DNA of 63,143 bases, filler included, from Octopus bimaculoides (lineage: Eukaryota), in NCBI RefSeq assembly GCF_001194135.2. It is 3 parts of 3 records of this genome, joined end to end, with 100 filler letters (N's around TTAATTAATTAA, not from the genome) between each part and the next. Parts side by side here need not be neighbours in the genome. Positions count along the whole stretch, not along the records: positions 1 to 17,890 come from NC_068983.1; positions 17,991 to 36,070 come from NC_068984.1; positions 36,171 to 63,143 come from NC_069001.1. One strand, written 5' to 3'. The position numbers and the translations under genes are program-made. This document shows, one piece after another, positions 11,020 through 45,145 of the stretch. Numbering within the stretch: position 1 is the first letter of the stretch; the number at the start of each line of letters is the position of its first letter. The notes beneath the pieces were generated by a model. The model worked only from the letters and a program-made list of their open reading frames with translations. It did not search any database and was not told where the DNA came from.

Positions 11020-11290
11020 TACATTATTTACAATTGATGAATATTTGTCCTCATCTTGTTTGTTATTAACACAACGTTTCAGCTGATATACTCTCCTGCC
11101 TCCATCAGGTGTCTTGGGGAAATTTCGAACCTGGGTTCTCATTCCTAAGGTATTTTTTGTTGCTGCTGCTGCTGCTGTTGTTGTTGTTGTTGTTGTTGTT
11201 GTTGTTGTTGTTCAGGTCACTGCCTGGAATCAAACATGGAATCTTAGGGTAAATATCCTGCGCTCTTAACCACTATGCCATATGCCTGTG
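11020..11290 (-). mobile_element. Composite SINE: tRNA-derived head, (AAC/AGC)n, then hammerhead-containing 3' module
   Basis: Minus strand: A box TGGCATAGTGG (11270-11280), B box GTTTGATTCC (11226-11235), microsatellite 11160-11212, body with hammerhead fold at 11068-11113. Confidence 0.8.
11068..11113 (-). ncRNA. Type I hammerhead ribozyme fold, degenerate (A9 to G, stem II mismatches)
   Basis: GACAC-CTGATGG-AGGCAG...CAGCT-GAAA-CG-TT-GTGTT. Confidence 0.6.
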
Positions 11291-11450
11291 GAATGAGAAC
11301 CCAGGTTCGAAATTTCCCCAAGACACCTGATGAAGGCTGGAAGGTATATCAGCCGAAACGTTGTGTTAACAGCAAACAAGATGAGGACAAATACCCGTCA
11401 ATTGTAAGTAATGTACATAATTCCTCATCTCTTAAATATAGAACTGTATT
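11290..11450 (+). mobile_element. Inverted second copy of the hammerhead module (pseudo-LTR-like)
   Basis: 11290-11417 is the reverse complement of 11020-11145 at high identity. Confidence 0.85.
11322..11367 (+). ncRNA. Minimal type I hammerhead ribozyme, core intact
   Basis: Stem I GACAC/GTGTT; CTGATGA (11327-11333) plus an extra A; stem II GGCTG/CAGCC; GAAA (11355-11358); palindromic AACGTT stem III; predicted GUU cleavage after 11362. Confidence 0.75.
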
Positions 11451-11725
11451 TCTTTTAGTGAGTACATACTTTTGTAACATTTGAAAATTAATATTTCGTT
11501 CATATCTTTGAAAACGTTTATTGCTTTGTGTTCCAAATTTGTATAATTTTTGCATGTATAATATATTTTCTTCAGTATAAATTTCGTTTGATTTCCTTTG
11601 ATATTATCAGAGTAATGACAATTTTACTGAAAATGTTTGGGGGTTTACATACTTCTTTGAGATACTGCATATCTGTCTACCTACATCTACATGTGTGTGG
11701 GCACGTGCGTGTGTGCGTGTGTATA

Positions 11726-12605
11726 CAGGGTGCAATGGGTAAATTGTTACCATTTTATATTTTATATTTCGTGCATGCACATTGCTTGTTTTTGGTTTTG
11801 TCAACTACACAGTATAGTAGGGTCAGTTGAGCACTGTCTGTGAGAAAAACACCACCATGATGCAATTCACTCTGCCAGAAATTTGGAAACGACATGCTGT
11901 ACTGCTTGACATTCATGCTGGAAGCTCCAATACGAACATTTCAGAGTGTTTGGGTGTCAGTCTGAGGACATATACCGAGAGTGATAAAAATCAGACATCC
12001 AGTCAACATCGTGGTGTTTGGAGTGATCATTAGTAAAGGCAATGTTATGTCTCCATTCATCTTCCCCCACAGTGTCACACTCAACACAGAGGCCTACATC
12101 AAGTGCCTGGAGGAGGTAGTGCTGCCCTGGGTCAAGAGGGTGGTTGCTGGGAGACCCTATATCTGGCAACAGGACTCTGCACTATGCTACACAAGCAAGA
12201 GAACCCAGTCATAGCTGTCAGACAGTTTATGTGATCACATCACCCCTAACATCTGGACATTCAACTCTCAACACCCCAGACTGCAACTCTCTTGATTATT
12301 ATATGTGGAGCACAATTGAGTGAGAGACCAATAAAACTCTTTGTAACACCAAAGATGAACTGAAAGCAAGGATTATGGCAGCATTCACCAACTTAAACAA
12401 GGAGATTATCCAGATGAGTTGCAGGAGATTCCAAAGTTGTCTGGAGGCCATGGTTGAAGCCAATGGTGATTTTATTGAATAAATTTACTCTTTAGTATTT
12501 CAAAATATTTTTATGTAATTTTGGTTAATATATCTGTTAAAATGAGATGTCAGTGTTATTTTTGTTTTTGCCTAATCTAGACAGGAGTTTATTCACCATA
12601 CCCTG
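11726..12605 (+). mobile_element. Internally deleted Tc1/mariner-superfamily element, maT/DD37D type
   Basis: TA-flanked ends TA|CAGGGT...ACCCTG|TA; transposase remnant YIWQQDSALCYTS...PDCNSLDYYMWS...EANGDFIE. Confidence 0.85.
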
Positions 12606-40910: not shown

Positions 40911-43900
40911 ACAGACACACACACACACACAGAGACACACACACACACACACACACACACACACACACACACACACACACAAACTGTGAAGCTTAAGTTG
41001 GTTCTATTTTCAATATTGAGTCTCCATTAATAAATGTTCCGTTATTCTTAAACTCATTCTAAAATAGTATCCTTATTTAAAACACACATACACAAGCAAA
41101 CACACATGCACACGTACACATACACCCACACCCACACATGCACCCCCACCACACAAACACACACACAAAACACACACAGAATATGAATCATTAATCAAAT
41201 TTTATGTCTGCCCTTCATCGCTAAATAGTGACGCCCCTGTGTCGAAGCGATTCCTATATTAATATTCAGAGACCTTCTCAGCCCCGTCCTCTGCATCAAA
41301 TAATAACCACTGCGTTGTTGGCACGTTTTACAGCATGAAAGAGAAAACGCATTTCAGCAAGAGGATGAGGCAGAAAAAATATTTCGACTGTAATGGATTC
41401 ATACACATTCACACCTACCTACCTACCTACCTACCTACCTACCTACCTACCTACGCATACATATACATAGAAACGCACATCATACATAGAGTTATACATA
41501 CGCAGATGCATACATTCTTCCATACATATGCATACATATATAAACGTATATATAAATATATATGCATATGTGTGTGTGTGTATGAATTTATGCATGTACA
41601 TGTACATATACCTTTATATAAACAAGTGTACATATATAAATGCGCATACATTCACATATATATATGTATGCATATATATATGCATATATATATATATGTA
41701 TGTATGTATGTACATACACATACATACATACATACATACATACATACATACACATATATATATATATATAATATATATAGACATATATATGCATATATAT
41801 ATGTATATATATCTCTCTCTCTATGTGTATACCCATAGATACATGCAAAAATACGCACGCATACATGTATATATGTCTGTGTGTATATATATGCGCATGT
41901 GTACGTGCAAATATATATTTATACATAAATACATATATAAATGTAGATGGATAGATAGATGGATAAATCGAAGGATATATAAAATAGTTTTATAAAGAGA
42001 TTGAATAGATCGAAAGATAGATAAATAGCTGGTTATCCAGCTCTTTAGCTACACACACACATATACATACATACATACATATATATATATATATATATAT
42101 ATATATATATGTATATGCGTGCATAGATAAACGCATAGATAGCTCTATAGACAAATAAATAGATAGGCTATTCTGTAGATAGATAAAGAGATAAACAGCG
42201 GTATCGATAGATGAAGAGATAGATACCTAGTAATATGAATAGTTAAGATGTTGGACATATAATGTAATAAGTAATGGAGATATCACCTGGGTTTCTTAGA
42301 AAATAGATAAAGAAGACAAAAAGAAGTTGCATGGTGACTGTTCAGCCACATTTTGGTGGAAATGTCAAACTCCATTTGGAGATCGGTGTTAATATCTTAG
42401 CAACACATAATATATTATTCAAAGAACGTGTGAGAACGAAACAGCCAGTTTCAGCCATTGCCATATTTTACTTCCTTTTCTATGAAATAAATATAAAAAA
42501 TGGAAAAAAATTAATATAATGACACCGTGGAAATATCTTTGTCACAAACTGTGAATCATTTTCTCACCTTTTAGAGAATATCATTCTATTGCGATGTCAG
42601 TATTTTGTCATATGACTCGTCATGTCTCTGGATCTCTCACACACCGTTTATACCGTATTCTTCATTTCAAAATATGTTGGTGTTTACTGGAAATATCCCG
42701 ATCCACATATTTCTTAAGGACCGCCATGAGTGAAGGCCACTCGAGAGTTTTCCCAGATTCTACTTCACAGCTGACAATAGAGAACACAATCATGTTGTCG
42801 AGCCTATCTGAAATCAATATTTCAGGTTCGACTCTCGTTGGGACCACACTCACCAGATTTTATAATCTTTCCTTCACAGGATATCTGCCCCGTGGTTTAC
42901 CTTTTCGCCTCATGTTATTCCTGCAGCCATCCACGTGCAGTAGTGATACAAAAACATATACGACCGCATTAACCGTTATTTAATATTATTTAATCACGGC
43001 ATTAAATATTTACAAATACAGGTATGTCAAATACCATACAACATAAATCACTGATTTATTAAAATTATCTCCACTTGTGTTGAATGTATCATAATTACCA
43101 AATGACAAAACATATATTCTTATATATACCTATTCATAGATATATACCCATATATATATACCTATATATATATATGTATATGGGTATATATAAGGACATA
43201 TATGCAAAAATGACATACATTTATCATATATATGTATATATATATATATATATATATTTAGACGCACATTTATATATGAATGCGTGTGTGTATATCTATG
43301 TGTGTTTATAAATACACAGACATACATAGCTATATTCATACACGCACGAATATTGTATGCGTACATATATTTATATTTGTCTGTATATATACTACCTACC
43401 TACTTACCTACCTACCTGCCTGCCTGCCTGCCTACCTACACACACACACACACAGACACTAATACACACATATATATATATATGCATATATGCATATGTA
43501 TATATATATGTATGTATATGTGTTTGTTTATTTATGTATGTATACACATCTATAGATACATACAAATGTATATTAACCGTGAGATAGATTAGACCACTTT
43601 ACTAAAGTTAGCGATTGAGTGTGTGAAAGAGTGAGAGAGAGAGAGAGAGAAAGAAAGGGAGAGAGGGGGAGTGAGAGGGAGAGATAGGGAGATCGTGAAA
43701 GGGAGAGAGAGGGGGGAAGGGAATGAGGATGAGAGAGATAGCATGAGAATGAGAAAGAGGGAAATGTGGAGAGAGAAAAAGAGAGGAGTTAGATATGCGC
43801 ACACACACACACACACACGAAGAAGCGCATGCGCGCGTGTGTGTGCGGCAGTGACATGCACTTCACGAAATCATGCTGCCAGAGAAGCAGCATCAATTTA

Positions 43901-44977
43901 CCATTCTGCAGCAGCAACTTGTAGAGTCTTTTGTTTGAAAGACAGGAAGGAATTGTTGAGAATCTCTTCATGAGGTCTTTGTATTGAGGTGAGAGGGGAG
44001 ATTGCGTGATGTTGAGTCACGATTAGTGGAGGCTGCCATGGCACCGATGTTCGGCTGTGGAGATCAGACTGGAATAGATTAAGGAGGGGTGGGCATGGAG
44101 AACGTTTATGAGGGTGGAGGTTTGTGGGAGCGTGGTCATGGCGGTGGAAATTAGCAGCGGTAACTGAATGACGATGATGATGATGATGATGATGATGATG
44201 ATGATGACGATGACGACGACGNNNNNNNNNNNNNNNNNNNNNNNNNNNNNNNNNNNNNNNNNNNNNNNNNNNNNNNNNNNNNNNNNNNNNNNNNNNNNNN
44301 NNNNNNNNNNNNNNNNNNNNNNNNNNNNNNNNNNNGTTTGTGGGAGCGTGGTCATGGCGGTGGAAATTAGCAGCGGTAACTGAATGACGATGATGATGAT
44401 GATGATGATGATGATGATGATGACGATGACGACGACGACGACGACGACGACGACGCCGCTGTTGAAGTTGACTACGAAGATGGTAGCGATGATAATTGTG
44501 ATGATGATGGTGATAATAATGACGGTGATGGTGATAATGGTGATGATGATGATGATGCTGATGATGATGCCGCCGCTGCTGAAATTGATGATGAAGATGA
44601 CGGTGATGAGGATTGAGACAGTGATGAAGAAAAGGAAGAGTGAGGGGGTTAGAATAAGGTAAGGAGGAATTTCGAAGCAGACGCACAACAAAACAACAAC
44701 GTCGTTGTTGTGATGACAGCGACGATAACGATGACGACGGTGGCGATGACGACGACGACGGCGATGATGACGATAATGATGATTATGAGGAGGATTAAAT
44801 GCAGGAGAAGCGGAGTTAAGCTGAAAGCAGACGCCATACACTCTTGGCACCAGCTTATCGGATGCGCGTACGCTTACGTACACACACACACACACACACA
44901 CACACACACACGCACGCCCCCATATATATATATGTTTTCAAAGGCGAAAAGGCGAATAAGCTTCGACAGCTAGCAAG

Positions 44978-45145
44978 CTATGCTACTCCCGACTGATGAT
45001 GAGCAATGACTCTGAAACTAGTCTCTGGATGCTGGCTTTGCTGGATAGAGGTGCTTATCTCCCCTCTTTGAAAACATAAGGACACAGAAAATGTGTCATG
45101 GCCAACTGGAAACGGTGTTTCCTAGGGCTAAATAGCAGTAGCATT
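44978..45145 (+). mobile_element. Short repeat fragment carrying a hammerhead fold (pseudo-LTR-like)
   Basis: Hammerhead at 44987-45029 followed by non-repetitive sequence; boundaries inferred. Confidence 0.45.
44987..45029 (+). ncRNA. Minimal type I hammerhead fold with palindromic stem III
   Basis: TCCCGA-CTGATGA(44993-44999)-T-GAG-CAATGA-CTC-T-GAAA-CTAG-TC-TCTGGA; ACTAGT palindrome, GUC site, stem I 5 of 6 paired. Confidence 0.65.

Follow-up and report, generated by a model that had tools for sequence, protein, structure and literature searches.

A coding Penelope-like element of Octopus bimaculoides whose pseudo-LTR appears to begin with a tRNA-type promoter, and further hammerhead-bearing repeats

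Minimal hammerhead ribozymes are known from truncated ends of Penelope-like elements (PLEs); these ribozymes occur widely and form many families per genome (Cervera and de la Pena 2014, PMC4209133). The promoters of PLEs are regarded as being of the RNA polymerase II (Pol II) type, and Pol III promoters in terminal repeats have been described only for long terminal repeat (LTR) elements that are non-autonomous. Here we analyzed a stretch of 63,143 nt from Octopus bimaculoides (genome G000), in the following called the window, in which an earlier note had reported several families of repeats with hammerhead folds. We focus on one of these, family A, which shares its sequence with the terminal repeat, or pseudo-LTR (pLTR), of a coding PLE and includes a tRNA-derived segment with A and B boxes. 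Statements on published work refer to those parts of the cited sources that were available to us.

The layout of the coding copy L160 (contig C9) matches those of Poseidon_Ac from the green anole (PMC11167929) and of Pen2a from Adineta (PMC3846280). A tRNA-derived segment like that of family A is described in neither source: the available text of PMC3846280 has no match to “tRNA” and that of PMC11167929 has none either, and Pen2a possesses TATA- and initiator (Inr)-like motifs. A Pol III-type promoter followed by a hammerhead, as in family A, is present in Sm-alpha and Sj-alpha of Schistosoma; these differ in being non-coding tandem units with an active canonical ribozyme, and the available part of the source does not describe them within a coding PLE (PMC6765202). 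Cassandra, Helenus and Ajax (TRIMp3) carry a Pol III promoter derived from a small RNA in their terminal repeat, thought to stem from the insertion of a short interspersed nuclear element (SINE). They belong to the LTR class and are exclusively non-autonomous, whereas in family A the coding element itself carries the promoter; the same source makes the case that autonomous partners are bound to Pol II and would not have a repeat of this sort in common with them (PMC10886601). A tRNA promoter within the pLTR of a coding PLE would illustrate one way in which a SINE-like family arises inside its own partner. The literature searched yielded no account of PLEs with tRNA promoters or of the octopus families studied here. 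The general picture is already published (PMC4209133, PMC7229834, PMC8557442), and the presence of many hammerhead families in one animal genome is already known; what remains is family A with its likely tRNA promoter.

The coding partner of family A was reached through L123, where a coding-like spacer within a family A palindrome led to it. L123 itself was rejected as the partner: its GIY-YIG domain is part of an unrelated PLE, with the palindrome there as an insertion of its own. In the true partner, L160, an inverted pLTR with tail is followed by a pLTR, the reverse transcriptase (RT) frame, a short 3′ untranslated region (UTR), the tRNA-derived segment and another pLTR. L160 thus has direct pLTRs, both with the hammerhead, and a truncated inverted pLTR at its 5′ end. 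The frame is open through the pLTR and matches Pfam RVT_1 (E 1.1e-10), and the protein is 37% identical over 765 amino acids to an anole protein, with whose C-terminus a GIY-YIG motif aligns by eye. On this similarity, and with no CX2-5CxxC linker visible by eye, the partner is probably a PLE of the Penelope/Poseidon type. The protein has 302 homologues at E≤1e-20, with PF01541 in two among the 120 listed, and the coding copies form subfamilies that are 77–92% identical in protein.

The pLTR and tail run straight into the open reading frame (ORF) in 14 of 30 loci (by pattern), and the end of the tail lies 162 nt downstream of the first ATG. Among the 20 best-matching palindromes, which were selected for likeness to the window copy, all have the 28-nt tail at exactly one end, and shared flank words indicate target duplications of 8–13 nt in 14 of them, compared with 6 of 380 mismatched pairs.

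A 75-nt segment, in the following called the head, is located after the stop codon and ahead of the hammerhead, and continues into (AAT)n. It contains an exact A box and a B box with one mismatch, 33 nt apart (consensus from PMC8969392), and aligns from its first base to genuine tRNAs of this genome, with z up to 10.6 versus shuffles in a comparison sampling five isotypes. Both boxes have been preserved even though its acceptor stem is broken. From 150 listed coding copies we fetched 20, 15 from the top and five from the bottom; five end or meet a gap ahead of the UTR, which left 15 informative ones. In 14 of these (12 by BLAST, two partly and by eye) the ORF end is succeeded by the head, which the remaining one does not have. 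Because these 14 copies carry it, the tRNA-derived head belongs to the PLE and is no separate SINE. The pLTR comes next in 24 of 29 copies of the head, and a sense arrangement of head, pLTR and ORF start occurs at one of 30 loci and, interrupted by a gap, at one more. Metagenome relatives (34–48% identity, eight loci) had no A and B boxes in their available short 3′ ends, with a pattern that also misses the decayed copy in the window.

The 5′ ends of the copies were compared in 30 loci obtained with tRNA positions 8–75 as query, leaving out positions 1–7. After dropping the query locus and L170, a probable duplicate, 28 independent copies were counted. Of these, 22 end between −8 and +7 of the tRNA start, and six run on by 43, 63, 65, 170, 490 and 866 nt. 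The background stop rate (upstream, 6 ends per 1,649 nt; downstream, ~0.005 per nt in 13 blind loci counted by hand) predicts 6–8% of ends in this interval, yielding a binomial P below 1e-18 on the presumption of a constant stop rate. Four ends lie exactly at 0, and eight copies, with the query locus counted here, have their end at 0 to −4 and show no fold-back; the minus arm in the window ends 2–4 nt upstream of +1. In a blind sample of the genome (120 evenly spaced 10-kb stretches from contigs C1–C16, 1,013,566 bases), three of five arms reaching +7 end there (by eye), and the deletion copies L161 and L148 rejoin at or within 10 nt of +1. This excess of ends at the tRNA start over the background stop rate indicates that copies reaching the head stem predominantly from a template whose 5′ end is defined.

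The family A monomer contains no TTTT. Over 2,508 nt of sense strand, runs of at least four T were found at six places, each in one or two of 5–30 copies, versus 44 such runs in 12,531 nt of other PLE RT regions of this genome and 41 in 9,418 nt of metagenome relatives of the same type, controls that differ from the family A PLE in age and lineage. Shuffling the codons of the ORF left no TTTT at P=0.08, and G-runs of four are likewise absent. We take the scarcity of TTTT as a weak hint that Pol III reads the whole element. Two raw RNA-seq data sets from a related organism, with about 6% read, served to assess transcription. In X23, the hammerhead was covered to a depth of ~4,000, the head to 1,400, the region immediately upstream to 700 and the ORF to 200. 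This coverage fits read-through of many copies and speaks neither for nor against short Pol III RNAs.

With moderate confidence, we consider that family A forms the terminal repeat of a coding PLE and has a tRNA-like promoter from which Pol III likely makes the template RNA of the short copies. Pol III would start 0–7 nt before the tRNA +1 and continue through microsatellite and hammerhead, then over the ORF’s first 162 nt and on into the flank. The RT of the element would bind this short RNA and begin at either of two internal sites, so that copies arise with the tail or lacking it; the RNA’s 3′ end would not matter because the RT initiates internally. Both nicked target strands would prime, and two copies meeting 5′ to 5′ would form the palindromes. 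The RT of Poseidon_Ac likewise starts inside the RNA in vitro, at two sites bounding the tail, and needs the first 172 nt of the ORF and not hammerhead cleavage (PMC11167929). Short copies would thus spread like SINEs, yet derive from the PLE’s own end. The hammerhead, which for cutting would require a dimer or the help of protein, is probably unneeded for insertion. A bolder version, which seems doubtful to us, has the whole element run by Pol III: its sense strand would be purged of TTTT and its uncapped RNA translated, perhaps aided by the hammerhead where the ORF begins, making it an autonomous coding retrotransposon that produces its own SINE-like swarm. Hammerhead-driven cap-independent translation has been reported for viruses (PMC13725137).

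Besides the constant stop rate presumed by the binomial test, several observations weigh against the main explanation. Of the 22 piled ends, nine are at −7 or −8 and ambiguous owing to a 5-bp hairpin there; four more are at +4 to +6, the edge of the query. Only five of 12 blind family A stretches carry the head (BLAST), and most copies in the blind sample are simply truncated further 3′. In Rfam the head reaches only 11–14 bits (cut-off 29), with positions 8–63 aligned; run on four family A loci, Rfam gave nothing useful at E≤0.05. ARAGORN at default settings found no tRNA in 12 loci, and chance matches only at a relaxed threshold. In RNA, first-mate counts are equal on both strands, all parts of the element are covered, and in neither run do read ends accumulate at +1 or the cleavage site. 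In the copy within the window, the B box is decayed and a target duplication is not evident, and L160 shows an 8-nt deletion in the head, a premature stop near the ORF end and no Pfam match to its GIY-YIG domain.

The fold-back form of those nine ends and the lack of an observed RNA 5′ end would also suit a passive role of the head, as an old SINE insertion in the 3′ UTR. All copies would then come from Pol II transcripts, and the pile-up of their ends from a Pol II start at that place or from reverse transcription halting and folding back at the hairpin, which spans −7 to +5; palindromes at 5′ junctions and a Pol II-type promoter in pLTRs have been described (PMC3846280). This explanation we regard as possible, if unlikely, given that the hairpin has merely 5 bp, that the eight ends at 0 to −4 lack a fold-back, and that the boxes are intact and correctly spaced in a head kept by 14 of 15 coding copies across subfamilies. 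RNase P needs acceptor and T stems. If it cut the tRNA-like segment at +1, a short 3′ RNA would be freed from a long PLE transcript, in agreement with the clustering of ends at +1, including the four exactly at 0, and with the partial survival of T-arm and anticodon-arm pairs. The acceptor stem of the head cannot form, however, and many ends lie 2–8 nt upstream of +1, which leaves this route very little probability.

The earlier note had taken family A for an independent non-autonomous SINE-like element, a view which our results do not uphold. Such a SINE, borrowing a PLE tail, or a DNA element resembling a miniature inverted-repeat transposable element (MITE) would explain that short copies far outnumber coding ones (13 loci, none with an ORF match, in the 1.01 Mb blind sample) and that the solo 294-nt monomer L092 starts at the head. 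The head is, however, part of the coding element’s own 3′ end, and unequal arms, a one-sided tail and duplications varying from 8 to 13 nt are ill-suited to a MITE, which we rejected as a candidate. The independent-SINE view is largely refuted, and we consider either variant highly improbable. Judged by sequence, a real variant appears to exist in a coding PLE that has a tRNA-type promoter at the start of its pLTR, with 5′ ends pointing to the use of this promoter. Family A is a sizeable repeat of ~12 insertions per Mb, or roughly 25–30 thousand when extrapolated from 16 contigs.

Two groups of derived copies were observed. L337, L340 and L341 (G000 C6:369k, C2:123.8M and C9:54.6M) are young coding copies that break off at one common point inside the endonuclease region, the site of a deletion in L160; this point may be a second place where the RT starts or jumps. 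In L133, L136, L137, L139, L148 and L154, internal deletions join the first few hundred bases of the ORF straight to the head or the pLTR, resulting in mini-PLEs.

Table 1 Hammerhead-bearing repeats and their parts in the window.
Feature	Position	Strand	Remarks
Family A insertion	11020..11446		two head-to-head copies of the PLE 3′ end (pLTR); arms 87% identical
Minimal hammerhead A−	11068..11113	−	one core change, A9 to G
(AAC/AAT)n microsatellite	11157..11212	−	between tRNA-derived segment and hammerhead region
tRNA-derived segment	11213..11287	−	+1 at 11287; consensus boxes from PMC8969392
B box of tRNA-derived segment	11236-11226	−	decayed in this copy
A box of tRNA-derived segment	11280-11270	−	matches consensus
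ATG in PLE ORF frame	11293..11295	+	within pLTR, 70 nt ahead of predicted cleavage site
Minimal hammerhead A+	11322..11367	+	perfect core; predicted cut after 11362
28-nt tail	11419..11446	+	one end only; equals the sequence joining pLTR and ORF body in coding copies
Family B insertion	16446..16882		head-to-head; both ends in dinucleotide repeats; left arm ~115 nt longer
Hammerhead B−	16599..16640	−	C at core position 4
Hammerhead B+	16801..16842	+	perfect core
Family C insertion	34790..35555		~465-485-nt circularly permuted unit plus inverted truncated copy
Hammerhead C−	34909..34976	−	perfect core, long helix II; two compensatory pairs across family
Mirror copy of hammerhead C	35374..35458	+	core decayed
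Family D	44933..45152	+	part of a 314-348-nt permuted unit, retrozyme-like
Hammerhead D	44987..45029	+	perfect core; canonical 6-bp helix I, 4-bp helix II
Hammerhead E	53231..53315	−	a relative of the repeat lies ~1.1 kb behind the end of a GIY-YIG-type ORF

The six type I hammerhead folds from four sequence contexts that the earlier note had reported were recovered, four of them with a perfect core. The exact core CUGANGA/GAAA/UH is present in A+ (core 11327), B+ (16805), C− (34970) and D+ (44993), and single-base deviations occur in A− (core 11108) and in B− (core 16630-16636, with U4 replaced by C). Under a strict descriptor for type I, which allowed a loop in helix III, there were five matches in the window (A+, B+, C−, D+ and E−). 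The last of these belongs to a fifth family with a perfect core at 53310 on the minus strand, outside the range considered before. Across 200 global and 200 local dinucleotide shuffles of the window, strict matches averaged 0.055 with a maximum of two, so that the real density, whose comparison with shuffled sequence had been proposed as a refutation test, is far above this control. Allowing one core mismatch, the descriptor gave 0–4 matches per shuffle; because it also matches shuffles, A− and B− rest on their status as mirror copies. The contexts of the five families show no mutual DNA similarity better than E 0.08. The head-to-head inverted pairing previously noticed in two families holds for A and B (arm identity 87% and 81%), and family C is a further such pair, with its second core decayed, that had been missed.

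Helix III, a palindromic 2-bp helix in A+, which also has an unpaired base after position 9, is fully self-paired in all five window matches, 10 of 14 blind-sample matches and 24 of 148 shuffle matches. RNAfold z-scores of eight folds range from −2.4 to +0.5, and folding energy alone supports A+ and D only. Rfam, run on the whole window, returned no hammerhead among the matches listed (150 of 307), and microsatellite noise was present. The hammerheads were not alignable across families with MAFFT, and covariation was counted within family C only: in 31 arms, two pairs changed on both sides (14 cells; 0 of 500 shuffles), a count inflated by relatedness, and two other measures were no higher than in shuffles. 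No RNA read ends piled up at the predicted cleavage sites of families A and D in the RNA-seq data, and the same is reported for the hammerhead cleavage site of anole Poseidon (PMC11167929). We conclude that the hammerhead-like motifs, with their predicted self-cleavage, are real and part of known kinds of mobile elements.

These hammerheads resemble the set of PMC4209133 in being type I with a short helix I, a longer helix II and an extra base after position 9. They further share palindromic helix III, thousands of solo copies and opposite-strand pairs 100–700 bp apart. Family B deviates from this set by C at core position 4, found in nine of 13 aligned copies; the master core of the family probably has C there, and the perfect core of B+ may have arisen by CpG decay of C4. 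Family B is mostly single-armed and ends in (TA)n (loci including L021–L039). We found no octopus analysis of PLE minimal hammerheads in the literature searched. The link of the hammerheads to PLEs, which the earlier note had proposed, stands for family A, identical in sequence to the pLTR of a coding PLE, and is likely for family E; among the fetched loci there was no coding partner for B, C or D.

Families C and D have periods of 442–486 and 314–348 nt, with more-than-unit copies in 10 and six of 20 loci each, and family C ends in (TA)n. As non-coding permuted units of ~480 nt (C) and ~340 nt (D) with a type I hammerhead and more-than-unit copies, they resemble non-LTR retrozymes (PMC7229834; bioRxiv 10.64898/2026.07.22.740005). 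They differ in being mostly dispersed monomers with inverted partners in the loci examined, and C is longer than the 170–400 nt retrozymes of PMC7229834. Family D has low depth in RNA, with seven and eight reads across the unit junction, which also occurs in genomic copies and in a further run of unclear kind. It is likely, on their sequence organization, that both families are non-LTR retrozymes and arose when enzymes of other PLEs copied tandem or circular RNA.

Family E (53100-53470, minus strand) has a fold-back at its 5′ end; a first look gave 3,517 candidates, 40 of which were scored at 90–95% identity. In L116, a relative lies behind the end of a GIY-YIG-type ORF that resembles Hydra-1_Obim (by eye), and family E is likely the end of a Hydra-type PLE. 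Hydra-1_Obim is an octopus PLE with a listed hammerhead and a (TA)n preference (PMC8557442, supplementary Files S1 and S2). Its hammerhead sequence differs from the families described here, and six short motifs from these families are absent from the available supplement of PMC8557442 save for one unrelated match. Inverted copies and tails of PLEs are described in the same source, one figure of which bears the label “Penelope-1 Obim”. In the giant squid, 235 hammerheads have been counted (PMC6962438), ribozymes are never mentioned in the available parts of two cephalopod repeat papers, and an octopus SINE paper of 1994 (Ohshima and Okada; SINEs OK, OR1 and OR2) is cited in PMC4758252.

The window joins three stretches (1-17890, 17991-36070 and 36171-63143), with families A and B on contig C3, C on C4, and D and E on C21. 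As these are three unlinked chromosomes, there is no 34-kb cluster in the genome; the hammerheads placed “within about 34 kb” and the local ribozyme-bearing retroelement system proposed from them are a packing artefact of joined stretches, and we dropped the idea of cooperating families. The blind sample contained 14 strict matches, from about a dozen sequence contexts, versus 0–3 in eight shuffles. At this rate, 0.81 matches would be expected in the window, compared with five observed (Poisson P=0.0015 before selection, the window being chosen out of a very large scan), making it about six times richer than average. Family A occurred in 12 of the 120 blind stretches, D and E in two each, C in one and B in none.

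Further hammerhead families were seen in flanks and blind stretches (L023, L039, L069, L086, L097, L099, L231, L248, L265, L273, L277 and L283), several with helix II inserts of 50–70 nt. In two of 50 GIY-YIG loci, L086 and L099, a hammerhead of another family lies 200–460 nt behind the domain on the same strand. Elsewhere in the window, ~11730-12600 contains what we take by eye to be a decayed Tc1/mariner-like transposase sequence. A fragment at ~38270-38630 resembles the C-terminal zinc knuckle region of a non-LTR element of the restriction-endonuclease type (by eye), and is followed at ~38640-39015 by a near-perfect fold-back of ~370 bp with no hammerhead match (by eye). An A- and B-box pair at 3760-3815 belongs to another, very common tRNA-type SINE.

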